Source: Nitrospinales bacterium (GTDB lineage Bacteria; Nitrospinota; Nitrospinia; Nitrospinales; VA-1). From it: a stretch of DNA of 64,000 nt. The stretch covers positions 1,504,001 through 1,568,000 of the forward strand of contig OZ253496.1 of the NCBI GenBank assembly GCA_965262115.1, given 5' to 3'. This document shows, in pieces, positions 16,312 to 29,610 of this stretch; the stretch's first letter is position 1, and each line of letters begins with the position of its first letter. The notes below the pieces were generated by a model that was not told where the DNA came from, made no database searches, and worked only from the letters and a program-made list of their open reading frames with translations. A program made the position numbers and the translations under genes.

Positions 16312-17067
16312 TTGGTCGATATATCGTTGCAGGAAAAAATAGATTCCAATCGTTTGCCCAGGCATGTTGCCATTATTATGGATGGCAACGGGCGCTGGGC
16401 GCAAAATAATTCCCTCCCCCGTATTGAAGGTCATTGGGCGGGCGTCAAGGTCGTGGACAGCATTGTCACCCTGAGCCGCGAACTCAACCTGGAAGCTTTG
16501 ACCCTCTACTCGTTCTCCGATGAGAACTGGAACCGCCCGTCCACAGAAATCAACACGCTCATGAAAATCCTGGATTTTTATTTGAAGAAGGAATTGAAGC
16601 GGATGAAAGATGAGAATATCCGCTTCAATACCATTGGGCGTGTTCAGGACTTGCCCGAGGCGATCCAAAAATTGATCCGTCATTCCATAGAAGATACTCG
16701 TAATAATGCCGGTATGGTCCTCACCCTGGCGCTGAGTTATGGCGGCAGGCAGGAGATCATCGATGCGGTAAAAAATATTGCTGAGCAGGTTCGCTCGGGA
16801 CGGATCCGGCCGGAAGAAATTGATCCGGCCCTGTTTGAATCGTTTCTTTCCACACACCCTCTTCCCGACCCTGATCTGATTATCAGGACCAGCGGAGAAA
16901 GAAGGATCAGTAATTTTCTTTTGTACCAGAGTGCTTATACCGAATTGCACTACAACAATGTGTTGTGGCCGGACTTTTCGGATGATGATTTCCTGAACGC
17001 GATCATTGACTTTCAAAGCCGAGACCGGCGCTTTGGAATGACGCAAGAACAAATTGTCAAAGCCTGA
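16312..17067 (+). CDS. uppS: Undecaprenyl diphosphate synthase (TTG start)
   Basis: HVAIIMDGNGRWA, FSDENWNR, IRTSGERRISNFLL. Confidence 0.97.
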   Translation: MVDISLQEKIDSNRLPRHVAIIMDGNGRWAQNNSLPRIEGHWAGVKVVDSIVTLSRELNLEALTLYSFSDENWNRPSTEINTLMKILDFYLKKELKRMKDENIRFNTIGRVQDLPEAIQKLIRHSIEDTRNNAGMVLTLALSYGGRQEIIDAVKNIAEQVRSGRIRPEEIDPALFESFLSTHPLPDPDLIIRTSGERRISNFLLYQSAYTELHYNNVLWPDFSDDDFLNAIIDFQSRDRRFGMTQEQIVKA

Positions 17068-17159: not shown

Positions 17160-17954
17160 TTGAAACGCGTTATCAGTGGAGCCATAGGCATTCCCATTGT
17201 GCTGGGAATTGTGTTGTACGGCTCTCCCCTCTTGTTCTTTGGTTTTGTTACGGCAATTGTTTTGCTCGCCAGCTACGAATACTTTGCCATGACTTCTAAT
17301 ACGGGTGTAGAGGGTTTTCCCATTGAGGGCGGGGTGTTGAGTTTCCTGCTTTTACTGGGTTTCTATCTGGGTACCCAGTTTTTATTTTTATTTGCAGCCC
17401 TGCTTCCCGTCATTTTGTTCGCGACCTGGTTCTTCAGGGAAAATAATGTGAAAGTGGCTTTGGATCCGATCGCTTATACGGTTCTCGGGGTTTTTTATAT
17501 TGCGGGATTGGGCGGGTACTTCCTGTTGATCCGCAATTTGGAAGGCGGAAGCCAGATGATCGTGTTCCTCCTGCTTCTGATCTGGGCTGGTGATACGGCA
17601 GCCTATTATGCCGGCCAGAACCTGGGCAAACACAAACTCATGCCTGTGATCAGTCCCAACAAGACGATGGAAGGGGCTATCGCCAATGTGCTGGGAACCC
17701 TTTTGGCCGCATTAATCATCAAGTTATGGTTTTTTCAGGAATTTTCGCTAACGCATTGTTTGATTGTAGCCTTTATATGCGGTATCATCGGTCAGTTTGG
17801 GGATTTTTCGGAATCGCTGATAAAAAGAAATTGTCGGGTGAAAGATTCAGGCTCATGGATTCCGGGCCATGGCGGTTTTCTTGATCGTATTGACAGCCTG
17901 TTGTTCGCTGGCCCGGCTTTCTATTGTTATTACCAATTGTTCCTGGGGACATAG
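17160..17954 (+). CDS. cdsA: Phosphatidate cytidylyltransferase
   Basis: SPNKTMEG, GDFSESLIKR..VKDSG..IPGHGGFLDRID. Confidence 0.96.
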   Translation: MKRVISGAIGIPIVLGIVLYGSPLLFFGFVTAIVLLASYEYFAMTSNTGVEGFPIEGGVLSFLLLLGFYLGTQFLFLFAALLPVILFATWFFRENNVKVALDPIAYTVLGVFYIAGLGGYFLLIRNLEGGSQMIVFLLLLIWAGDTAAYYAGQNLGKHKLMPVISPNKTMEGAIANVLGTLLAALIIKLWFFQEFSLTHCLIVAFICGIIGQFGDFSESLIKRNCRVKDSGSWIPGHGGFLDRIDSLLFAGPAFYCYYQLFLGT

Positions 17955-17977
17955 TCAAACCCCGTCAGGACAACTTC

Positions 17978-19132
17978 ATGAAAAAGATATCCCTTCTGGG
18001 CTCGACGGGTTCCATTGGCGTCAACACGCTGGACGTTATAGAGCGCTATCCCGAAAATTTTCAGATTTGCGCCCTTTCCGCCGGAAGCAACGTAGAACTG
18101 TTTGCCCGCCAGATTCGAAAATTCAAGTCCGCACTCGCCGCCCTGTTTGATTCCACTAAAGTGGATGCCTTGAAGGAACTGGTTGGCGATTTGGATGTGG
18201 AAATCGTTTCCGGTCCGGAAGGTTCGGTTTCTGCCGCTTCTTTTCCGGAAGCCGACCTGGTCGTTTCCGGAGTGGTGGGCAGCGCCGGATTGCTCCCAGC
18301 CCTTGCTGCACTCAAAGCCGGAAAAAACCTGGCGCTTGCCAATAAAGAAACGCTTGTTATAGCTGGCGAACTGGCGCTGAAAGAAGCCGCGCGGACCAAC
18401 ACTAAAATCATTCCTATCGACAGCGAACACAGCGCAATTTTTCAGGCTTTGAACGGAGAGAAAACAGAGCGCATCAAAAAAATTATTCTGACCGCGTCTG
18501 GCGGACCTTTCAGAACTTTCAGCCTCAAGCAGATGGAAAACGTCACGGTGAAGGAGGCGCTCAATCATCCCAACTGGAGTATGGGAGCCAAAATCACCAT
18601 CGACTCTTCCACCATGATGAACAAGGGCCTCGAATATATAGAAGCCAAATGGCTGTTTGGCGTGGAGACCAACGTCGAGGTCATCGTTCACGCACAGAGC
18701 ATCATTCATTCGATGATCGAGTTTGTCGACACTTCCATCATGGCGCAGTTGGGCATTCCCGATATGCGGGTTCCCATCGCTTACGCCCTGACTTATCCGG
18801 ACCGGTTTGAAAGTGAACTGCCCTCTCTGGATTTGGCAGCAATGGGTGACCTGACCTTTGAGGCTCCAGACTTTGAAAGATTTCCCTGCCTGCAACTGGC
18901 TATGGATGCCATGGAAATGGGCCAGACCCTGCCGGCAGTCCTCAATGCCGCTAACGAAATCGCAGTGCAGGCGTTCCTCGATGAACTGATCCCCTATAAA
19001 GATATTGCAGAACTCATTCGCATGGTCATGCAAAATCACCGCCCGGTCCCCCTGCAGGAATTGGAAGATGTTCTGGAAGCCGACCGCTGGGCTCGCGAAG
19101 AAACTACAAAACTAATAACAGTCACCCATTGA
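17978..19132 (+). CDS. dxr: 1-deoxy-D-xylulose-5-phosphate reductoisomerase
   Basis: LGSTGSIG, LANKE, PIDSEH, TASGGPF, KITIDS, NKGLE. Confidence 0.97.
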   Translation: MKKISLLGSTGSIGVNTLDVIERYPENFQICALSAGSNVELFARQIRKFKSALAALFDSTKVDALKELVGDLDVEIVSGPEGSVSAASFPEADLVVSGVVGSAGLLPALAALKAGKNLALANKETLVIAGELALKEAARTNTKIIPIDSEHSAIFQALNGEKTERIKKIILTASGGPFRTFSLKQMENVTVKEALNHPNWSMGAKITIDSSTMMNKGLEYIEAKWLFGVETNVEVIVHAQSIIHSMIEFVDTSIMAQLGIPDMRVPIAYALTYPDRFESELPSLDLAAMGDLTFEAPDFERFPCLQLAMDAMEMGQTLPAVLNAANEIAVQAFLDELIPYKDIAELIRMVMQNHRPVPLQELEDVLEADRWAREETTKLITVTH

Positions 19133-19241: not shown

Positions 19242-19733
19242 ATGAATTTACCGAATATTCGCATTGGCAATGGTTATGATGTGCACCGTCTGGTTGAGGG
19301 AAGAAAACTCATCCTTGGAGGGGTCGATGTTCCGCATTCGATGGGACTGGACGGGCACTCCGATGCCGATGCCCTGGCACACGCTTTGTGCGATGCCCTG
19401 CTGGGGGCGCTGGGGGCGGGGGATATCGGTGCCTACTTTCCGGACACCGATTCGAAGTGGAAAGGCATTTCCAGCTTGCTGCTACTCAAAGAGGTCATGC
19501 GCATGTGCCGGGAAAAAGGGTTTGAACTTGCTAATGCCGATTCCGTGATCGTGGCGCAGAAGCCTAAACTTTCTCCGCATCTGCCAGAAATGAAAAAGAA
19601 TATTGCTGCGGCACTTGATGTAGAAACGAACCGGATAAATATTAAAGCCACCACAACTGAAAAGCTTGGGTTTGCCGGGCGGGAAGAAGGCATCACCGCC
19701 TACGCGGTTGCCTTACTGGTAAAAAATGTCTGA
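19242..19733 (+). CDS. ispF: 2-C-methyl-D-erythritol 2,4-cyclodiphosphate synthase
   Basis: [25 protein letters not shown]. Confidence 0.97.
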
Positions 19734-20979
19734 CCTTAACGAACGCATCGTAATCACAGGAATTGGGTTGACCTCCCCCAACGGCAACAACCTGAAAGAA
19801 TTCCGACAAAACCTGCTGAACGGGGTCTCAGGAGTGCAACATTTCGAAACCCGCTATATGGGGAAGGTCCACGCCGGAGTCTGCGATTTTGATGAACTGA
19901 AATACCAGAAGAAAAAAGAACGCCGTCGCGGCACCCGGGCCGGCTCTGTCGCCATCTACTGTTCGCAGGAAGCCATTGCCGATGCCGGAATTGATCTCGA
20001 AGCGATCGACCGTTCTAAAGTCGGTGTCTATCTCGGCGTGACCGAGCATGGCAATGTCGAGACCGAGAACGAAGTCTACAACATCAGCCAGTATGGTTAT
20101 GACACCAAGTTCTGGTCGCACCATCATAATCCCCGCACAGTGTCCAACAATCCGGCCGGCGAAGTGACCTTGAACATGAAAATCACCGGGCCGCATTACA
20201 CCATTGGCGCGGCCTGCGCCGCCGGGAATATGGGCGTCATTCAGGGTCTGCAGATGTTGCGGCTGGGGGAAGTCGATCTCGCATTGGTGGGCGGGGTGTC
20301 TGAGAGTATCCACACCTTCGGCATCTTTGCCAGTTTCAAAAGTGAGGGGGCTCTGGCCGAGCACGAAGACCCGACCAAAGCCAGCCGTCCGTTCGATAAA
20401 AACAGGAACGGCATCGTCTGTTCAGAGGGTGGTGCCGTCTACACGCTTGAACGATTATCGGATTCGCAAAAACGTGGCGCAAAAATCTACGGTGAAATCG
20501 TCGGTTACGCCACCAACTCCGACGCGATCGATTTCATCCTGCCCGACCCGGGCCGACAGGCTCAATGCATACGCATGGCGCTGGATAAGGCCGGACTCAA
20601 ACCGGGCGACATCGATATCCTCAATTGCCATGCCACCGCTACACAGATGGGAGACATTCAGGAGGCCAAGGCCATCCGCGAAGTGTTTGGCGATAACAGT
20701 AAAACGCGCATCAATAACACCAAAAGTTTTATCGGTCACACCATGGGTGCGGCGGGCACGCTGGAACTCTCCGGCAACCTGCCGACGTTTGAAGATAACC
20801 TGGTCCACCCCACCATCAATCTGGATGACCTCGACCCGGAATGCGCCTTGAACCACCTCGTCGCCAACAAACCGGAAAAACTCCCCTCCGTCGACCTCAT
20901 CATGAACAACTCCTTCGGCATGTTCGGCATCAATTCCGTCCTCATAGTGCGGAGTCCCTCCGCTGGGAACTTGCAATGA
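19726..20979 (+). CDS. Beta-ketoacyl-ACP synthase (divergent FabB/FabF-like)
   Basis: Cys-His-His triad: [31 protein letters not shown]. Confidence 0.92.
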
Positions 20980-21047
20980 CTCTTTCTAGCGGACAAACAG
21001 TCTTTTTTGCCCATTGGGATATAACTATTTGCCCCCACGGCGAGTGG
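20949..21047 (+). repeat. Family B element overlapping the KAS 3' end
   Basis: GCGGAGTCCCTCCGC..TTGCAA.....GCCC-CCACGGCGAGTGG, 99 bp. Confidence 0.7.
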
Positions 21048-21055
21048 ATTTAGGC

Positions 21056-21084
21056 TTGAAATTGGTCATATCTTCCATTAAAAT
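21056..21084 (+). promoter_or_regulatory. Putative internal sigma70 promoter before ACP
   Basis: TTGAAA, 17 bp, TAAAAT. Confidence 0.55.
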
Positions 21085-21116
21085 CAAGGCTGACGGAGAC
21101 TTGTGAGAGGAAAGTA

Positions 21117-21380
21117 ATGACGATTGAAGAAGTACGGCAGATTATTCTTAATATCCTTGCTGATATTGCCCCGGATGAGGATATCAGTTCTATTGACGAC
21201 AACACCAAATTGCGCGACCAGATCGACCTGGATTCGATGGATTTCCTCGATATCGTCATGGAACTCAGAAAACGCTTCAACATAGAAGTGCCGGAAAAAG
21301 ATTACGAACATCTGGCTACTATGGCCGGCTGCATTTCTTACCTCACCCCCTTATTAAAAGACCGACCGTTGGCCACTTAG
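21117..21380 (+). CDS. Acyl carrier protein
   Basis: LDSMD phosphopantetheine site, acidic 87 aa. Confidence 0.93.
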   Translation: MTIEEVRQIILNILADIAPDEDISSIDDNTKLRDQIDLDSMDFLDIVMELRKRFNIEVPEKDYEHLATMAGCISYLTPLLKDRPLAT

Positions 21381-21479
21381 GTTTTTTTAGCCCCTCTTTT
21401 TTTGACAGCATCCTTACATCCCCACTAAACACATTGCAAGGCTACGCCTTGAGGAAACTATTATCGCGGTGCTCCATTC

Positions 21480-21774
21480 GTCATCGCGAGCGACTGCAAG
21501 GGGCGCGGCGATCCAGTCTTTCCGCTTCGGGGCATGAAGGCAAATGAAGAATTTCACACAGTTGCTCGCGATGACAACCCCTTGTTGTAAATCACCCCAG
21601 CCCCTTGTGATATCACCTTCCATAAACTTCATGCCCGGTACGGGTACTTTGAAAAAGAGGGAGCACCCCATCAAGCCGAGAAAAACGATTGCTAGCAGTA
21701 AAACGCTATTGCATTTGTACCCCTCCGGGGCACGAAAACTGAGGAAGAATATCACGGCCCCAGCGTCACGCTGG
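21480..21774. repeat. Composite repeat cluster: family C, CCCTCTTT hairpin and partial family B, each carrying a family A unit (21520-21558, 21606-21646, 21718-21756)
   Basis: Direct comparison with copies at 10.3, 39.5, 43.4 and 53.4 kb. Confidence 0.85.
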
Positions 21775-21791
21775 GTGGTATAATTCGCGCT

Positions 21792-23174
21792 ATGCGTTAT
21801 GACACGATTGTAATAGGTGCGGGGCTATCGGGATTGGCCGCTGGCATTCGCCTGGCCATGTTTGATAAAAAGGTCTGCATTATTGAAAAGCATGTTGAGT
21901 TGGGCGGACTGAACTCTTTTTATGTGAGAAAAAACCGCACCTTTGATGTGGGACTCCACGCGATGACCAACTTTAGCCCTAAGGGTGTCCGGTCTTCGCC
22001 ATTGGGCAAACTTCTCAAACAACTGCGATTCAGTCATGACGACTTCCGCCTGTGCCAGCAGGAGATGTCGGAGATACGCTTCCCGGAGAAATCCCTTCGC
22101 TTCACCAACGATTTTGAGTTCATGCGCCAGGAAGTGGCGGAACAGTTCCCCGACCAGATAGACGGATTCAACAAGCTGGTGGAAAAAATTCTAGCTTTTG
22201 ACGAGCTGAACCTTAACGATGGCGAATGTCTTTCTTCTCGGCCTGTATTGGAATCATTCATCAGCGACCCGGTGTTGATCGACATGTTATTTTGTCCCTT
22301 AATGTATTACGGCAACGCCCGTGAAGGCGACATGGATTTCTATCAGTTCGTCATTATGTTCAAGAGCATTTTTGTAGAAGGATTCTCCAAGCCGGAAGGA
22401 GGCATGCATTTCATTCTCAACCTCCTGGCTGACAAGTACAAGAAACTGGGCGGTGAGTTGAAGATGGGGTGCGGGGTACAATCCATCAACGCCAGCAAGG
22501 GAACGGTCGCTTCGGTGACGCTGGAAAATGAGGAAGAGTTGGCCACCGCGATAGTGCTTTCTTCCATGGGTTATGTGGAAACGATGAACCGCTGCCAGCC
22601 CGAGCTCGCTGAAGCGGGAAGTTTGGAGACTGGGCAGGTGTCGTTTATGGAATCCCTTTTTGTGGTGGATAAGGAGCCCCGCGACCTGGGTTATGACCGG
22701 AGCATTGTCTTTTTTTCCACTCAGCCAAAGTTCACGTACAAGGTACCGGAGGATTTGATCGACATTTCCAGCGGTGTGTTGTGTTGCAGTAATAATTTCA
22801 AATATCCTAAACCTCTTAAAGAAGGGTTGATTCGGCTGACCAACCTGGCTAGTTTCGGGAAATGGGACAGTCTGGTGAGAAAAGACTATATCGCCGCCAA
22901 AAAGCAGTGTAGAGGCCGGGCTTTGCAGGAGTTATTCACATTTTTCCCCGATTTTAGCGATAATGTGGTATTTTTAGACTCGTTTACGCCTAAGACCATA
23001 AAGAAATATACAGACCATATTAACGGGGCTGTCTATGGATCGCCGGAGAAGATTAAGAACGGAAAAACCCCTGTCAAAAACCTGTATATATGCGGGACAG
23101 ATCAGGGGTTTTTAGGTATTGTTGGGGCCACATTGAGTGGAATATCCATGGCCAACCTGCATCTTTTACGATAA
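21792..23174 (+). CDS. Phytoene desaturase (CrtI)-like FAD oxidoreductase 1
   Basis: VIGAGLSGL, E..LGG, FDVGLH, TPKT..YT...GAVYG, C-terminal GIVGATLSG. Confidence 0.88.
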   Translation: MRYDTIVIGAGLSGLAAGIRLAMFDKKVCIIEKHVELGGLNSFYVRKNRTFDVGLHAMTNFSPKGVRSSPLGKLLKQLRFSHDDFRLCQQEMSEIRFPEKSLRFTNDFEFMRQEVAEQFPDQIDGFNKLVEKILAFDELNLNDGECLSSRPVLESFISDPVLIDMLFCPLMYYGNAREGDMDFYQFVIMFKSIFVEGFSKPEGGMHFILNLLADKYKKLGGELKMGCGVQSINASKGTVASVTLENEEELATAIVLSSMGYVETMNRCQPELAEAGSLETGQVSFMESLFVVDKEPRDLGYDRSIVFFSTQPKFTYKVPEDLIDISSGVLCCSNNFKYPKPLKEGLIRLTNLASFGKWDSLVRKDYIAAKKQCRGRALQELFTFFPDFSDNVVFLDSFTPKTIKKYTDHINGAVYGSPEKIKNGKTPVKNLYICGTDQGFLGIVGATLSGISMANLHLLR

Positions 23175-23186
23175 ACAATCACATCA

Positions 23187-24635
23187 ATGAATAAACCCAA
23201 GAGAGACTGGTTGAAGGGTGTTTTGTCGGCTTACGATACGGTCGTCATTGGGAGCGGTCTGGCGGGAATGACGTCGGCCAATCTTCTGGCCAAGCTGGGA
23301 CACAAGGTTTTGCTGGCCGAGCATCATTATAATATGGGGGGCATGGCCACCTGGTTCAAACGCAAGGGCGGGCATATTATGGATATCTCCCTGCACGGGT
23401 TCCCCCGTGGGATGATTAAGACCCTCAGAAAATACTGGACCCAGGACATCTCGAACCGGGTCATCCAGCTCAAAAATATTCGTTTCGACAACCCGCAGTT
23501 TTCTCTCAATACCTCTTTCGACAAAATAGATTTCACCCATATTCTGCGTGAGCGTTTCTGTATCCTGAAAGAAGTGATCGACGAGTTCTTTTTGACCGTC
23601 CGCGACATGAATTTTTATGACGAAGTGGTCATGACCACCCGCGAGCTTTTTGAAAAATATTTTCCCGGCCGCACTGATGTCTGGCGTTTTCTCATGGAGC
23701 CGATCACCTATGCCAATGGTTCCACCCTTGATGATCCGGCAATCACTTACGGCATTGTGTTTTCCAACTTTATGGACAAGGGAGTTTTTACCTACCAGGG
23801 CGGCACCGATCACCTGATTAAGGAAATGAAGAAGGAGCTGTTGAAAAACGGCGTAGACATTCGCACGCACTGCATGGTCGAAAAAATTTATGTGGAGGAT
23901 AAAACCGTACAGGGGGTTCGCATCAATGGTCAGGATATCCAGTGCAAGTCGGTGCTTTCCAATTCCAACCTGTTGACCACCATCCAACAGCTGACCGGCG
24001 AGGAACATTTTGATGCTGAATTTATCAAAGAGGTCAAAAAAGTTAGGCTCAATAATTCCAGTTGCCAGGTTTATATGGGAATTAAAACAGGCGAAACAGT
24101 GCCGAATGTAGGCGATCTGTTGTTCTCGTCCGTGGCCGATGAATACTGCACAGATCAAATATTGAGTAAAGATGTTACCAGCCGCACGTTTTCATTTTAT
24201 TACCCGGAAATCCGCCCCGGTACCAATCGTTACTCCATCGTTTCTTCGACCAACGCCCGCTATCAGGACTGGGCCAACCTGAGTGAATCCCAATACAAAA
24301 AAGATAAGCACGATCTGGAGCAAACGACTCTCGACGCGCTGGAAAAATATGTTCCGGGCATAAGCAAAAAAGTGGACCATGTGGAAGCCTCAACCCCGAA
24401 AACTTTCAAGCGTTATACCCTGCACCCCTCGGGCACCTCGTTTGGAACCAAGTTTGAAGGACTCAAAATAAGCCGGGATCTTCCTAAACAGATCAATGGG
24501 CTGTTCCATGCCGGCTCGGTGGGGATCATCATGTCAGGTTGGCTGGGAGCGGCGAACTATGGGGTCATTGTCGCCAACGAAACCGACAAATTCCTCCGCC
24601 AGCTGAGCCCGAGCCTGGTGACGACATCGGCCTGA
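23187..24635 (+). CDS. Phytoene desaturase (CrtI)-like FAD oxidoreductase 2
   Basis: [24 protein letters not shown]...G.SFG, GLFHAGS. Confidence 0.88.
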
Positions 24636-24758
24636 ACACCTTTCTTCCCACTTGTCTTGCGGATCATACCTTGAGAAAATACATGATAACTATTGTTAAA
24701 GGGGCAAAAGCACCTGCTAGTTTAATGGGTATTGACCTATTGGCCCCACGCCGAGTGG

Positions 24759-25502
24759 ATGGAATTTGACTTTAAAGGACAAACAGCTTTGGTCACTGGC
24801 GGTACTCGCGGCATAGGCCGGGCTATCTCCGAGGCGTTTCTTAAAACCGGAGCGAAAGTCATCGCCGCTTATCGGGGCAACGATGAGGAGGCGGAGAACT
24901 TTAAACGCGCCAATGCCGGTCACGTCGGCTGTCTCGACATTCATAAATTCGATGTCACCGATTATGAAGCAGTGGAAAAGTTTTATAGAGATATTGAAGC
25001 GAAATATGAAAACTTTCAGATCCTCGTTGTTAGTTCGGGCATTCGATCTGATTCCATTGTTGGCATGATGAAAGCAGAAGACTGGAACCGTGTCATCGAC
25101 ACCAATCTGACGGGAACGTTCAATTTATGCAAGTTGGCGGTGCAGGCAATGATGCGCCAGAGGTATGGGCGGATCATCACTTTAACGTCTCCTATTGGCA
25201 AGTTAGGGTTTGCCGGTCAGGCCAATTACGCTGCATCAAAAGCTGGACAGGTGGCATTCACACGATCCCTTTCCAAGGAAGTGGCGAGCCGGGAAATAAC
25301 CGTGAATTGTGTATCGCCAGGCTTCATTGATACGGATTTCATTGGCGATCTGCCGGAAGAGCAAAGAAAATCCTATAAAGACCAGATTCCCCTGAAACGT
25401 TTCGGGACCCCGGAAGATGTTACCTACCCGGTGCTGTTTCTGGCCTCAAAAGAATCTTCTTACATCACGGGTTCGGTGTTAGAGGTAACCGGGGGACTAT
25501 AG
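24759..25502 (+). CDS. 3-oxoacyl-ACP reductase (FabG-like SDR)
   Basis: TGGTRGIG, GQANYAASK, PGFIDTD; NNAG replaced by VSSG. Confidence 0.9.
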   Translation: MEFDFKGQTALVTGGTRGIGRAISEAFLKTGAKVIAAYRGNDEEAENFKRANAGHVGCLDIHKFDVTDYEAVEKFYRDIEAKYENFQILVVSSGIRSDSIVGMMKAEDWNRVIDTNLTGTFNLCKLAVQAMMRQRYGRIITLTSPIGKLGFAGQANYAASKAGQVAFTRSLSKEVASREITVNCVSPGFIDTDFIGDLPEEQRKSYKDQIPLKRFGTPEDVTYPVLFLASKESSYITGSVLEVTGGL

Positions 25503-25503
25503 A

Positions 25504-25929
25504 ATGCCACAGGACTTTCTCCAATACATTCCCCATCGTCCCCCTTTCCTATTTGTCGATCGGGTGCTTGAAGAAAGTGACGACACCATTAAGACGGAAA
25601 AAAAGATCGACCCGAAAGAACCTTTTTTTGAGGGACATTATCCTGGAAGACCGATCATGCCGGGAGTATTGATCTTTGAATCTATTTTTCAGTCCGGTGC
25701 AATCATGATGGGCAAACGCATCGCCAAGGAAGGCAGGATTCCTGTTCTCACCCGGGTCAACAACATCAAACTCAAGCACGCCGTCCATCCCGGAGACACC
25801 ATGCAGATTGAGGTGACCCTCAAAGACCTGGTCAGTAGCGCCGCCTATATGACGGGGAAAGCCAGCGTCAACGGTAAAATCGCAGTCACCCTGGAGTTCT
25901 CCGCCATGCTGGTTGAGGAGACGCAATGA
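25504..25929 (+). CDS. 3-hydroxyacyl-ACP dehydratase (FabZ-like)
   Basis: [27 protein letters not shown]. Confidence 0.92.
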
Positions 25930-26729
25930 GTTTTTTGGATCTGGAAGATAAAAGCATCTTAGTGACCGGAGTGGCAAACAAGAAAAGTGTTGCCTGGCAT
26001 ATTGCGAAGACGCTGGAAGAAGAAGGCGCAAAGGTCATTTACAGCGTCCGCTCCGAAGACCGCAAAAAATCACTGGAAAAACTTCTGGCAGGTAAAACCG
26101 TTGTCATTTGTGATGTGGAAAAAGAGGAAGAGGTTGAACGTTTAAAGACTCAGGTTGCTGAACACTGTAAGGTTCTGCACGGACTCGTCCACTCGATAGC
26201 TTTTGCCAATTATTCAGAGGGCTGGAAACCGTTTCATGAAACGCCGAAAAAGGATTTTCTTCAGTCCATCGATATCAGTTGTTATTCCCTGATCCATCTA
26301 GCCAACGTTTTTAAGGACTTGTTTCACCAGCAAGCTTCTGTGGTCACGGTATCGATTTCGACTACGCGAATGGCGGCGGAAAATTATGGCTATATGGCTC
26401 CGGCTAAGGCGGCGCTTGATTCCACCCTCTGTTTCCTGGCAAAATCGTTCAGCGCTTTTTCTAAAGTTCGGTTCAACTCCATCAATCCCGGCCTGCTCAA
26501 GACATCGGCGTCAGCGGGCATCCCCGGTTATGTCGACTCCTACCTGCATGCCGAAAAAGCAACATTGAGGAAAAAGGCCCTGACCACCCAGGAGGCGGCC
26601 AATGCCGCAGTATTTTTATTGAGCGAACGCGCCAGCGGGATCAATGCTCAGGGCCTGGTTCTCGATGCTGGAATGTCCATCAACTATTTTGATCAGGAAT
26701 TGATTAAATCCACTCCCACCTCTTCGTGA
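25926..26729 (+). CDS. Enoyl-ACP reductase (FabI-like)
   Basis: [33 protein letters not shown]. Confidence 0.9.
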
Positions 26730-26834: not shown

Positions 26835-28181
26835 ATGAATAGCTTTTTCGCTGATTTTGCCCAATTGATGTGGGGACCTTGGCTTCTTGCGCTTTTGTTG
26901 GGTACCGGTTTCTGGTTGACGATTCGGCTTCGGGGAATTCAATTCCGCAGTCTTTTCTATGCTCTCCGTTTGACATTCTCGAAGGAGCGGCAAGGACAAG
27001 GCGATATCTCTCACTTTGGCTCTTTGATGACAGCCTTGGCCGCGACGGTCGGCACTGGTAATATAGCCGGGGTCGGCACGGCAGTTGCCTTGGGCGGACC
27101 TGGTGCCATCTTCTGGATGTGGGTCACGGGCCTGGTGGGCATGGCGACCAAATACAGCGAATGTTTTCTGGCTGTTAAATTTCGCCGGGTCAATGATAAA
27201 GGCGAAATATCCGGCGGGCCGATGTATTACCTTGAAGAGGGTCTGAAAAGAAAATGGCTGGCAATGTGTTTTGCCGTATTCGGCGCTTGCGCGGCTTTCG
27301 GTATCGGCAATATGGTGCAGGCCAATACTACCGCTATCGCGGTGGAGGGCTCCATCGGGGCCAGTAAAATGGTTATAGGCGCGCTCCTCGCGTTTTTAAC
27401 CGGGCTGGTGGTGATCGGAGGACTCAAACGAATCGCCGAAGTCGCTTCTTATCTGGTTCCATTCATGGTTGCGATTTATTTTTCCGGCGCCTTGATCGTT
27501 ATTTTCAATCACCTGGACCAACTGGGTTCAGGAATGAGGCTGGTGTTTGAGCATGCTTTTACAGGAACTGCCGCGACTGGGGGATTTGTGGGAGCCTCTG
27601 TAGCGAATTGCATTCGCTACGGCGTGGCACGCGGAATTTTTTCCAACGAATCCGGCATGGGGAGTGCGCCCATCGTTGCCGCCGCCGCAAGAACCAATCA
27701 TCCCGGCAAACAGGCCCTAGTTTCCATGACCGGAACTTTTATCGACACCTTGATCGTTTGCTCCATCACCGCGATCGCGATCAGTTCTACCGGGGTGTGG
27801 ACCTCGGGTGCAACCGGCGTGGCATTGACCGTTCAGGCTTTTACTGCGGGGCTTCCCGTGTGGGGAGAACCTCTGGTTGCTCTGGGTACCATTACCTTCG
27901 CTTTTTCCAGCATTCTTGCCTGGGAATATTATGGTGAAAAGTGCTTTGAATATATTTTTGGGGAGAAATATATCCCCTTATATCGTTATGCCTGGGTGAT
28001 TTTTGTGTTTGTCGGTGCCCAAATCGAACTGGAGTTGGTTTGGAATCTTTCAGACGCGATGAACGCCTTGATGGCAGTACCCAACCTGATTGGGCTCATC
28101 TTTTTAAGCGGGGTTCTGTCCCGTGAGACTAAAGCTTACGAAACGGGAATCTGTGATGGTTCCATTAGTAAATTCGACTGA
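26835..28181 (+). CDS. Alanine/glycine:cation symporter (AGCS family)
   Basis: LAATVGTGNIAGV, GGPGAIFWMW, GGPMYY, FSNESGMGS. Confidence 0.95.
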   Translation: MNSFFADFAQLMWGPWLLALLLGTGFWLTIRLRGIQFRSLFYALRLTFSKERQGQGDISHFGSLMTALAATVGTGNIAGVGTAVALGGPGAIFWMWVTGLVGMATKYSECFLAVKFRRVNDKGEISGGPMYYLEEGLKRKWLAMCFAVFGACAAFGIGNMVQANTTAIAVEGSIGASKMVIGALLAFLTGLVVIGGLKRIAEVASYLVPFMVAIYFSGALIVIFNHLDQLGSGMRLVFEHAFTGTAATGGFVGASVANCIRYGVARGIFSNESGMGSAPIVAAAARTNHPGKQALVSMTGTFIDTLIVCSITAIAISSTGVWTSGATGVALTVQAFTAGLPVWGEPLVALGTITFAFSSILAWEYYGEKCFEYIFGEKYIPLYRYAWVIFVFVGAQIELELVWNLSDAMNALMAVPNLIGLIFLSGVLSRETKAYETGICDGSISKFD

Positions 28182-28206
28182 TGAAAAACACCTGGGAGTC
28201 CTGATC

Positions 28207-29610
28207 ATGTATAAAGCCTGTCTGAAGCTTCACTACTTCTTCTTCCTGATTTTTATCACTGTTGTCAGCCCGGCAGATCAAGCCTATGGCGAGATAGAAT
28301 TGAATCTCTTTACCAATACATTCGATAAGTTTTCTGTGGACGGCCAGTTTCATGTATTTTTTCGACACGATAGTAATCCCTCTTTTGGGGTACCTGCGGA
28401 CACAAGGGGACGGGCAGAAACGACTTTTGGGGAAACAGTGGCCAAGCTGGGTTTCACGTTTGAGAAAAAAATGCCATGGACGGTTTTGGAAGGCCGTGTC
28501 AGCGGGGTATTAATGTCCACCATCAATGCGGATGTATATGGAATTGCAGATGACGAAAGCCAGGGCGATCTGAATGAAGGCTTTTTGATCCTCAAAAAAA
28601 TCAATCAATCCCCTATAGACATCAAGGTCGGCCGCCAGAATATCTTCATTGAAAAATCCTTTATTTCAGGAGACGCGAATCCCGAAGACGCGGCGATATG
28701 GATTTCCGCGCATAAAAGTTTTCCCTTTGCCGTAAGAGTAGATGGAGATTTCGGAAAGTTAAAAACCCTTGCTTTCTGGGCCGATACTGAGCTTTACTCG
28801 CAACAGGGTGATCAGCGAGAGGCGGGAAAAAGAGGAAAGGAGGGTGTCTCCTTTGCGGGAATAAATATACATTACGACTTTTCAGAAACCGCCTATTTAT
28901 ATGGGGGATATTACAGAAAAATAGATGAGAGCAATATTACCTTTGCCAACTTTTCCCCCGGCGGACAAGACCTGTTCTCTGAAAATAACACTAATGCGTT
29001 TGATATAGGGTTTGACACTGCGGTTGGGTCTTTTCATTTTGCTGGAGAATTTGTTTACCAAACGGGAGATGCCGGACGCCTCGGTGGCCAGGAATTAAGC
29101 CGGGACGCCCATGCCGGTTTTGCCCAAGCTCGGTATAATTTCAACCACTCCGCAAACCCTTACCTGAAATTCATGTACGTGTTTTTTTCCGGGGATTCAG
29201 ACCTTGAGGACGATGAAGCGGAAGATTATGACCCCATGTTTATCACCAGCAGGGTTTGGAATGAATGGTTGATCGGGCAGCATGTTGGTGAGGTTCAACT
29301 TGCCAATACGAACAAGTATGCTTTCATTGTGGAAACCGGCTTTTCGCCAATGCCGAGAATGCAAATGGCTTTTATGTTTTTAAAGCATTATTTGGATGAG
29401 CGGTACCTTGGAGTCTCAAGAGGAAGACAAGCCCTGAACAGCGATGATTACGCGGATGAATGGAATTTGCTGATCGACTACGAAGTCAATAACCATGTAT
29501 TTGCCCATGTTGGGGCTGGCTATGTAATTCCGGGAAAAGCGGCGGAAGAATTTTTTGGCAACGGCAACAATAATTTTTTCACCCAAGTGTGGTTAAAGTT
29601 CCATTTTTAA
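28207..29610 (+). CDS. Outer-membrane beta-barrel protein (alginate-export/porin-like)
   Basis: Signal peptide, KVGRQ, GEFVYQTG, SGD motifs; C-terminal WLKFHF; start uncertain. Confidence 0.75.
   Translation: MYKACLKLHYFFFLIFITVVSPADQAYGEIELNLFTNTFDKFSVDGQFHVFFRHDSNPSFGVPADTRGRAETTFGETVAKLGFTFEKKMPWTVLEGRVSGVLMSTINADVYGIADDESQGDLNEGFLILKKINQSPIDIKVGRQNIFIEKSFISGDANPEDAAIWISAHKSFPFAVRVDGDFGKLKTLAFWADTELYSQQGDQREAGKRGKEGVSFAGINIHYDFSETAYLYGGYYRKIDESNITFANFSPGGQDLFSENNTNAFDIGFDTAVGSFHFAGEFVYQTGDAGRLGGQELSRDAHAGFAQARYNFNHSANPYLKFMYVFFSGDSDLEDDEAEDYDPMFITSRVWNEWLIGQHVGEVQLANTNKYAFIVETGFSPMPRMQMAFMFLKHYLDERYLGVSRGRQALNSDDYADEWNLLIDYEVNNHVFAHVGAGYVIPGKAAEEFFGNGNNNFFTQVWLKFHF

Follow-up and report, generated by a model that had tools for sequence, protein, structure and literature searches.

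A cassette of seven genes (positions 19,726–26,729) in a 64,000-nucleotide (nt) stretch of DNA from a Nitrospinales bacterium (assembly GCA_965262115.1, contig OZ253496.1, positions 1,504,001 to 1,568,000; the whole stretch is referred to as the window) has, in our judgement, a slightly better than even chance of encoding a dissociated type II acyl synthase, which would employ two flavoproteins to make unsaturated and probably polyunsaturated chains for the olefins of the Ole pathway. As such, it would be a counterpart of the Pfa synthases of polyunsaturated fatty acids (PUFAs). The cassette comprises genes for a ketoacyl-ACP synthase (KAS), an acyl carrier protein (ACP), two FAD proteins of the CrtI/CrtD fold, here termed Fl1 and Fl2, and FabG-, FabZ- and FabI-like enzymes. 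Its host belongs to the Nitrospinaceae, is a marine nitrite oxidiser and has a genome assembled as a single 2.68-Mb contig.

The strongest clue is the link of the cassette to the oleABCD genes, together with a distribution complementary to that of Pfa synthases. The samples used for this comparison comprise genomes that are at least 85% complete, and PfaA-like proteins were scored at E ≤ 1e-100, a criterion that also admits type I polyketide synthase-like proteins. In a sample of 251 genomes centred on the Thermodesulfobacteriota, 14 genomes carry Fl2, 25 carry OleA and 12 carry both. All 13 genomes with OleA and without Fl2 have a PfaA-like match, which exceeds the cut-off in nine of them and lies beside oleA in several. 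By comparison, only one of the 12 genomes that combine OleA with Fl2 has such a match (the centre genome, with 790 bits and under the cut-off), and no OleA-bearing genome of this sample is devoid of both Fl2 and a PfaA-like protein. A second sample, of 201 Planctomycetota genomes, gives a similar picture: Fl2 is present in 43 genomes, every one of which has OleA, and a PfaA-like protein is found in 31 of the 32 genomes with OleA and without Fl2 (27 over the cut-off), compared with one of the 43 genomes with Fl2 (a weak match of 370 bits). Seven further genomes of this sample have a PfaA-like protein and no OleA.

When both samples are pooled, OleA is present in 55 of the 57 Fl2-bearing genomes. 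The 100 OleA-bearing genomes divide into 53 with the cassette only, 44 with a PfaA-like protein only, two with both and one with neither, meaning that 97 possess exactly one of the two systems. The genes are often close to each other as well, with OleA lying within about 8 kb of Fl2 in 7 of 12 genomes of the first sample and, for the Planctomycetota sample, within about 11 kb in no fewer than 22 of the 43 genomes. OleA was also present in each of five diverse carriers of the cassette. Among 120 Nitrospinota genomes, 88 have OleA, and its presence follows the same family pattern as that of Fl2: both proteins occur in families f1–f5 and both are absent from f6, f7 and f9.

Gene neighbourhoods add to this link. 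A pattern scan for Fl2 across one genome per species yielded at least 597 relatives in at least 600 matching stretches, and the locus counts given here and below rest on the best 80 of the 597, many of whose loci end at contig edges. A gene for a phosphopantetheinyl transferase (PPTase; PF01648) directly follows that for FabI in 19–20 of the 80 loci, a KAS III of the OleA type (NF006720, above the cut-off) is encoded beside the cassette in 13, and OleC-like together with OleD-like genes accompany it in five (L036, L053, L060, L080 and L084). No acyltransferase family of the PlsB, PlsC or PlsY type recurs beside the cassette in the compared loci.

In the host itself, an OleA homologue is encoded at 112,441–113,484 of the genome (NF006720, 451 bits versus a cut-off of 285). 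Its best matches in the PDB are 3ROW, 3S21 and 4KU2, which we take to be structures of Xanthomonas OleA, at E 1e-70 compared with 1e-21 for the best FabH. The end of this oleA gene is overlapped by an OleB-like gene for a haloalkane-dehalogenase-like hydrolase, and OleC- and OleD-like proteins, each best-in-family, are encoded elsewhere. PfaA (TIGR02813) is represented in the host genome only by FabD- and FabF-like partial matches of at most 112 bits, far under the cut-off of 1010, and the idea that the cassette is itself a Pfa synthase was discarded on these grounds. An oleC gene has been reported in a Nitrospina metagenome-assembled genome (MAG), according to the part of that paper available to us (PMC10176705).

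Several features around ole genes and cassettes were recorded in passing. The gene directly upstream of the host's oleA–oleB pair (region 110,673–114,353 of the genome) encodes a lipid ABC exporter that resembles MsbA and narrowly misses its cut-off with 574 bits, which hints that the olefin or its precursors might be exported or flipped. In the Dehalococcoidia loci L030, L042 and L090, and in no other phylum, a duplicated pair of OleA-like and KAS genes precedes the cassette, giving two genes of either kind per locus. In loci of delta-type bacteria and Chloroflexota (L029, L035, L034, L046 and L061), SRPBCC proteins (polyketide-cyclase-like), condensation-domain proteins resembling wax ester synthase/diacylglycerol acyltransferase (WS/DGAT) and DUF362 proteins recur within a few kilobases downstream, where they may have a part in releasing the acyl chain; the host genome yielded no homologues of them.

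The cassette and its surroundings are laid out as follows:

16,312–17,067, + strand: uppS, upstream of the cassette
17,160–17,954, + strand: cdsA, upstream of the cassette
17,924–19,132, + strand: dxr, upstream of the cassette
19,242–19,733, + strand: ispF, for 2-C-methyl-D-erythritol 2,4-cyclodiphosphate (MEcPP) synthase (TIGR00151, 218 bits versus a cut-off of 116)
19,726–20,979, + strand: KAS, a FabF-like elongating ketoacyl-ACP synthase (PF00109 and PF02801)
21,117–21,380, + strand: dedicated ACP of 87 amino acids with a DSM serine motif (PF00550)
21,381–21,791, no strand: spacer between the ACP and Fl1 genes with short dispersed repeats (blastn against the genome)
21,792–23,174, + strand: Fl1, FAD protein of the CrtI/CrtD fold, 460 amino acids (PF01593 and PF13450)
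23,187–24,635, + strand: Fl2, FAD protein of the CrtI/CrtD fold, 482 amino acids (PF01593)
24,732–25,502, + strand: FabG-like 3-oxoacyl-ACP reductase (Pfam adh_short_C2)
25,504–25,929, + strand: FabZ-like 3-hydroxyacyl-ACP dehydratase (PF07977, FabA-like)
25,926–26,729, + strand: FabI-like enoyl-ACP reductase (PF13561, adh_short_C2)

An earlier annotation made from the letters of the window, hereafter the original prediction, had placed the same seven genes at these positions, and all seven open reading frames (ORFs) lie on the + strand with Pfam families that agree with it; both flavoproteins, for instance, are matched by Amino_oxidase/NAD_binding_8. It had also described a KAS start that overlaps the ispF stop downstream of uppS–cdsA–dxr–ispF. 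This reading is borne out: the ATG of the KAS gene (19,726) and the TGA of ispF (19,731–19,733) produce an overlap of 8 nt, from which co-transcription of the two genes is plausible. The arrangement is local: of the other loci, none but those of the closest Nitrospinaceae (L013, L015 and L016) show the overlap, and a gap of about 170–680 nt takes its place in L023 and L025–L027; ispF is best viewed as a neighbour of the cassette that is a member of it in close relatives only. Within the cassette, the FabZ and FabI genes overlap by 4 nt, the FabG and FabZ genes are separated by 1 nt and the start of FabG is uncertain (TTG at 24,732 or ATG at 24,759). Fl1 and Fl2 share one reading frame with 12 nt between the Fl1 stop and Fl2, and it was noted that loss of a single stop codon would suffice to fuse the two (21,792–24,635).

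A scan of the window for promoters returned 12 sites where 11.9 are expected by chance, and a predicted site in the gap between the KAS and ACP genes (21,056–21,084) is therefore a lead only. The 411-nt spacer between the ACP and Fl1 genes, which measures about 105–235 nt in close relatives, is made up of units of about 40–80 nt, for which blastn finds more than 100 further matches across the genome at 80–96% identity. These look like a dispersed intergenic family akin to repetitive extragenic palindromes (REPs) or miniature inverted-repeat transposable elements (MITEs), and an antisense ORF within the spacer (21,414–21,755) is probably spurious. Downstream of the cassette (26,835–29,610), a gene for a sodium:alanine symporter of the AgcS family is followed by one for a protein of 495 amino acids with a weak match to Alginate_exp (outer-membrane β-barrel) and to no NCBIfam family; the longest ORFs of the two overlap by 59 nt.

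The cassette is a second, divergent set of genes resembling those of a fatty-acid synthase of type II (FAS II) beside a canonical fab operon. The latter (plsX–fabH–fabD–fabG–acpP–fabF–rnc) is located at 290.7–296.2 kb of the genome, with every gene above its cut-off, and the canonical fabZ adjoins lpxA and bamA. The question raised with the original prediction, namely whether a separate canonical operon exists or the cassette holds the only fab genes of the genome, is thereby settled in favour of a second set with its own ACP. Divergence was judged by bit score relative to the NCBIfam equivalog cut-off. The KAS scores 328 bits with TIGR03150 (cut-off 494), the ACP stays under every ACP equivalog cut-off (36 bits versus 70) and the best FabI equivalog gives 179 bits for a cut-off of 362. 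FabG falls short of TIGR01830 (282 versus 298) and passes the subfamily NF009466 (254 versus 222), and FabZ passes NF000582 (126 versus 113) and stays under TIGR01750 (121 versus 155). Identity to the canonical proteins of the same genome amounts to 30% for the ACP, 42% for FabG and 39% for FabZ.

The catalytic residues are nonetheless in place. In KAS, the triad C164, H302 and H338 is invariant relative to canonical FabF, while the loops '[10 protein letters not shown](A/S)NNPAGEV' and 'NNSFGM(L/F)GINS' stand in place of the canonical 'PFFIP...' and 'SNSFGFGGTN' and are conserved in the cassette KAS of four other loci. The consensus motifs are a serine in DSx for ACP, Tyr-x6-Lys for FabI, Ser...Tyr-x3-Lys for FabG and a histidine for FabZ, and the catalytic motifs of the four proteins were found in the translations: [24 protein letters not shown]. 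The divergence of KAS, ACP and FabG from housekeeping forms, as originally claimed with motifs that are indeed present, thus stands. This cannot be said of the claim that the cluster is self-contained: FabD, FabH and a PPTase are missing from the cassette, and no FabI-like protein besides its own was found in the genome, the next matches being short-chain dehydrogenases/reductases (SDRs) with 24% identity. Genome-wide, FabK gave no match over the cut-off and FabV none at all, although control genomes were silent for FabV, too. The genome has one PPTase gene, of the AcpS type, and two membrane fatty-acid desaturases. A third FabF-like KAS (1,611,732–1,612,982 of the genome), which at 455 bits falls slightly short of the FabF cut-off, is solitary and lies beside genes for a β-N-acetylhexosaminidase and a DNA cytosine methyltransferase.

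Fl1 and Fl2 share 23% identity and both keep the N-terminal FAD-binding GxGxxG motif as well as many invariant residues. The order of their NCBIfam matches is carotenoid isomerase, CrtD and then the CrtI family, all far under the cut-offs: TIGR02730 (carotenoid isomerase) gives 78 bits for Fl1 and 101 bits for Fl2 with a cut-off of 587, and the CrtI model TIGR02734 gives 61 and 80 bits, respectively, with a cut-off of 238. This order leans weakly toward the isomerase/saturase branch. AlphaFold2 models of high confidence (pLDDT 89.3 for Fl1 and 90.6 for Fl2) have 4REP, 3KA7, 4DGK and 5MOG as their nearest solved folds overall, the top Foldseek matches in the PDB being 3KA7, 4REP and 4DGK for Fl1 and 4REP and 3KA7 for Fl2; of these, 4DGK is CrtI and 4REP a γ-carotenoid desaturase. 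Such searches return CrtI/CrtD-like neighbours only and do not discriminate between an isomerase and a desaturase. By sequence, the PDB holds no close relative of either protein, with matches reaching only E 1e-5 to 1e-8. The proteins are therefore phytoene-desaturase-like in fold, as first described, yet far from every carotenoid-enzyme cut-off. The accompanying remark that no phytoene synthase is nearby is accurate, too, because the only gene of the squalene/phytoene synthase (SQS/PSY) family lies about 470 kb from the cassette; a carotenoid locus was rejected as an identity of the cassette on this distance and on the low scores.

Across phyla, Fl2 is the most conserved protein of the cassette (58–67% identity) and Fl1 the less conserved of the pair (46–56%). 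The two genes are adjacent in 40 of the 80 loci, i.e. wherever both occur at a locus, and Fl1 is retained elsewhere in the genome in all five Planctomycetaceae genomes with a solitary Fl2. Fused gene calls also exist: P0274 (Fl1 at residues 1–463, Fl2 at 511–975) and P0275 join Fl1 with Fl2, P0122 joins Fl2 with a FabA/FabZ-like domain and P0277 joins Fl2 with a FabI-like domain. Frames of about 1000 amino acids at Fl2 in three planctomycete genomes were considered as further Fl1–Fl2 fusions and dismissed as a high-GC artefact, with Fl1 in another frame. Because the two genes are adjacent, are both kept when dispersed and are found in fused calls, Fl1 and Fl2 are predicted to act together as a heteromer, in line with the heterodimer initially suggested; the calls that join Fl2 with FabZ- and FabI-like domains would fit an action on the product of FabZ.

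The best 80 Fl2 relatives carry at least eight phylum labels, namely Nitrospinota, Planctomycetota, Chloroflexota, Thermodesulfobacteriota, Nitrospirota, Verrucomicrobiota, Lentisphaerota and Muiribacteriota, with Phycisphaerae, Pirellulales, Planctomycetaceae, Dehalococcoidia, 'Deltaproteobacteria', Nitrospirales, Opitutia/Opitutales and Lentisphaeria among the finer labels. The closest named relatives are from Nitrospina and other Nitrospinaceae (70–95% identity), and the 58–67% given above applies outside the Nitrospinota. For the cultured species Nitrospina gracilis and N. watsonii, the identity of the Fl2 orthologues is 74%, and cultured Nitrospina has ole homologues as well as the cassette. 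The gene order KAS–ACP–Fl1–Fl2–(FabG)–FabZ–FabI is preserved across phyla; by clustering, the companions of Fl2 in the 80 loci are FabZ in 43, FabI in 41, Fl1 in 40, ACP in 30, FabG in 29 and KAS in 24. The cassette KAS is 64–81% identical to that of other loci, and FabI 59–76% in loci beyond the closest relatives. The uppS–ispF neighbourhood is confined to Nitrospinota loci. In a quick tree, Fl2 groups mostly by phylum, with rows from Chloroflexota and delta-type bacteria intermixed, and two MAG loci labelled 'Candidatus Kuenenia sp.' (L055 and L074) nest in the Planctomycetaceae, where Fl2 is likewise solitary; the label or binning of these contigs looks doubtful. Within the Nitrospinota, 95 of 120 genomes have Fl2 (53 of the 57 of high quality), comprising 94 of 105 in families f1–f5 and none of 14 in f6–f9. 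Elsewhere the cassette is patchy within phyla (14/251 and 43/201 in the two samples above, and 1/126 in a Chloroflexota sample, in which the centre genome alone has Fl2). Its carriers include aerobes as well as lineages labelled as anaerobes, which is compatible with the oxygen-independent chemistry that had been proposed.

How might such a cassette work? Housekeeping FabD would load malonate onto the dedicated ACP, itself activated by the single AcpS-type PPTase, and elongation cycles would be run by the cassette KAS, FabG, FabZ and FabI. In some cycles, a heteromer of Fl1 and Fl2 would act on the enoyl-ACP made by FabZ and introduce cis double bonds where FabI would otherwise carry out a reduction; FabI would be reserved for cycles that stay saturated. 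This role is proposed for the flavoproteins because a FabA-like dehydratase/isomerase is the Pfa activity without a counterpart in the cassette, and Fl1 and Fl2 are the cassette proteins without a counterpart in Pfa. Their reaction could be a redox-neutral isomerisation, like that of FabA-like Pfa domains or of carotenoid isomerases on polyenes, or it could be a flavin-dependent desaturation. The finished chain would then pass to OleA and on to OleD, OleC and OleB to give a head-to-head long-chain olefin. In the Pfa–Ole system, the C31:9 olefin consists of two Pfa-made 16:4(n-3) chains joined by OleABCD, as described in the available parts of the respective papers (PMC4882568, PMC6463001). More tentatively, and with the odds against it, Fl1 and Fl2 might be a flavin-dependent, O2-independent pair of enoyl-ACP cis-isomerases (one of the 2,3-type and one of the 2,2-type), through which Nitrospina, planctomycetes and sulfate reducers would make C31:9-like polyenes without Pfa.

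A number of observations sit uneasily with a cassette that feeds the Ole pathway. The co-occurrence has exceptions: two Fl2-bearing genomes of the 251-genome sample are without OleA, one OleA-bearing genome of the Planctomycetota sample (G376) has neither partner, and the Nitrospinota include 14 genomes with Fl2 and no OleA match and seven with OleA and no Fl2, which are mostly incomplete MAGs, some being 90–97% complete. The sampled genomes are moreover related, which means that the counts overstate independence and that the Nitrospinota pattern corresponds to about one split in the phylogeny; the breadth of the PfaA-like criterion counts on the same side. In the host, the ole homologues are scattered over the genome (at 112 kb, 174 kb and 2.55 Mb) and none is beside the cassette, which instead adjoins the isoprenoid and phospholipid genes uppS–cdsA–dxr–ispF. 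The OleD-like gene (173,807–174,802 of the genome) scores 351 bits for an equivalog cut-off of 580 and the OleC-like gene (2,545,032–2,546,645) 558 bits for one of 900, and no thioesterase or transferase that would bridge the ACP to OleA was identified. Each of the fused calls is a single case from a metagenome assembly. Finally, a sole FabI-like gene within a full reducing cycle means that part of the cassette may serve ordinary fatty-acid synthesis.

Some of these points feed directly into alternative explanations. The cassette might make (poly)unsaturated fatty acids for membrane phospholipids, with the link to Ole secondary or absent in the Nitrospinaceae, an alternative that we consider unlikely while taking it seriously. 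Its translational coupling to ispF behind uppS–cdsA–dxr–ispF and the distance to the ole homologues in the host speak for it, as does the precedent of Pfa synthases that supply both phospholipid PUFA and olefin, according to the accessible part of the source (PMC6463001). However, the uppS–ispF neighbourhood is limited to the Nitrospinota, and what recurs beside the cassette in other phyla are PPTase and ole genes rather than acyltransferases of the PlsB, PlsC or PlsY type; the presence of OleA in 55 of 57 Fl2-bearing genomes from two phylum samples argues in the same direction. It is improbable that the cassette is instead a primary, O2-independent branch of monounsaturated fatty-acid synthesis, in which the flavoproteins would replace FabA, FabM or FabX, the KAS would act as FabB and FabI would be a dedicated reductase. 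A primary branch would not require a dedicated ACP and, elsewhere, a PPTase, the genome already has two membrane desaturases, and the patchy distribution of the cassette follows OleA and a lack of Pfa rather than a general need for lipids. Even so, this possibility would account for the sole FabI-like gene of the host, for the failure to find a second FabI-like match in three of five other carriers and for the presence of the cassette in nearly all genomes (94 of 105) of five Nitrospinota families. It also has analogues, as far as the available text of the two studies goes, in the Enterococcus faecalis cluster specific for unsaturated fatty acids (UFAs) with its own FabI (PMC9671860) and in Helicobacter pylori FabX, a flavoenzyme that acts on acyl-ACP in UFA synthesis (PMC8626469).

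Two further alternatives find little room beside the preferred supply of chains to Ole. In the first, the substrates of the flavoproteins would be isoprenoids (carotenoids, squalene or hopanoid precursors), and their place among fab-like genes would be incidental. In its favour are the CrtI/CrtD fold, carotenoid isomerase and CrtD as the best NCBIfam matches, the upstream position of dxr and ispF and the presence of one SQS/PSY-family gene in the genome, but it is very improbable. The scores of 61–101 bits compare with cut-offs of 238–587, the SQS/PSY gene is distant, the dxr/ispF neighbourhood is specific to the Nitrospinota, and KAS, ACP, FabZ and FabI accompany the flavoproteins across phyla, down to fused calls of Fl2 with FabZ-like and FabI-like domains. 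In addition, anammox homologues that are more CrtI-like, albeit different proteins, gave no lycopene in Escherichia coli, as stated in the part of the study available (PMC4790861). The original prediction had drawn a parallel to the ladderane loci of anammox bacteria, which share the theme of ACP, FabZ, FabF and a phytoene-dehydrogenase-like gene in the accessible portions of the literature (PMC2649909, PMC10139942). A locus of this type is scarcely credible here. The B12 radical S-adenosylmethionine (SAM) protein and the FabF pair resembling ketosynthase/chain-length factor (KS/CLF) of anammox Cluster I were not found at 16–32 kb of the window. Moreover, the host oxidises nitrite and the 'Kuenenia'-labelled Fl2 loci nest in the Planctomycetaceae, so that this parallel had to be abandoned. 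The link to the ole genes and the complementary distribution with Pfa synthases had no place in the original prediction.

That flavoproteins desaturate acyl chains in such clusters is a hypothesis already published in 2009, whereas the dispersed ole complement of the host, its sole FabI, the three-way counts of Fl2, OleA and PfaA, the fused calls and the isomerase alternative are new here. No published link of the cassette to ole genes or to Nitrospina was found in a literature search outside subscription journals. Should the proposed function hold, carotenoid-desaturase-fold flavoenzymes acting on acyl-ACP would constitute a small-protein, O2-free route to polyunsaturated chains, an enzymology not described before. 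It would also answer the question posed in 2009 as to the source of unsaturated chains in olefin producers without Pfa and give a role to a set of genes present in at least several hundred species. A polyene hydrocarbon would then be predicted in the membranes of Nitrospinaceae, and these bacteria, which are key to nitrogen cycling in the sea, with Nitrospina as the ocean's main nitrite oxidiser, would be possible contributors to the oceanic pool of biogenic hydrocarbons. From a practical viewpoint, seven small genes would be far simpler to engineer than Pfa megasynthases.

Among known systems, anammox Cluster I, with its B12 radical SAM gene and its pair of FabF and mutated FabF beside amxACP and amxFabZ, is reported to be exclusive to ladderane producers in the available parts of the respective studies (10.64898/2026.05.19.726425, PMC10139942). 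CrtI, CrtD, CrtISO and RetSat have the same fold as Fl1 and Fl2 (TM-score 0.57–0.75) and the same GxGxxG motif, at 14–19% identity, but keep the company of carotenoid genes, whereas Fl1 and Fl2 are surrounded by acyl-ACP enzymes. FabX is an FMN/4Fe-4S enzyme of another fold. FabX of H. pylori and fabI–fabN–fabO of E. faecalis share with the role proposed for the cassette the principle that a devoted enzyme introduces the cis double bond, on an enoyl- or acyl-ACP, alongside a KAS and a FabI reserved for the purpose; they differ, as far as the accessible accounts tell, in belonging to unrelated families, using the housekeeping ACP and making monoenes for phospholipids.

Closer in outline are the clusters for which an anaerobic route to PUFAs was proposed in 2009, in Desulfotalea psychrophila (DP2405/DP2406 and DP1860) and Kuenenia stuttgartiensis (Kuste3336 and Kuste3607) (PMC2649909, accessible in part). 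They, too, place pfam01593 flavoproteins inside a fab-like cluster, and in D. psychrophila, which makes polyunsaturated hydrocarbons, the FASII clusters include two adjacent amine-oxidase-like proteins of this family, DP2405 and DP2406 (PMC2649909). DP2405 and DP2406 are possible orthologues of Fl1 and Fl2. By contrast with the cassette, these clusters contain radical SAM and methylase genes and are reported to have FabI outside, and no link to ole is drawn in the available part of that paper (PMC2649909).

The nearest parallel remains Pfa–Ole, as in Shewanella and Geobacter bemidjiensis, where pfa and ole genes stand in tandem in the latter (pfaD-A-B-C-oleA-B-C-D-pfaE), again according to the accessible text (PMC4882568, PMC6463001). 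Both systems combine ketosynthase, ACP, ketoreductase, dehydratase and enoyl reductase functions, joined in other phyla by a PPTase, and both have ole genes as their genomic partner, often adjacent, with 97 of 100 OleA-bearing genomes carrying exactly one of the two. Pfa is a multidomain megasynthase (PfaA being composed of ketosynthase, acyltransferase, multiple ACP and ketoreductase domains), whereas the cassette, lacking PfaA, FabA-like dehydratase domains and the FabK-like PfaD, consists of separate small proteins of the FAS II type, complemented by two flavoproteins of the CrtI fold and a reductase of the FabI type.

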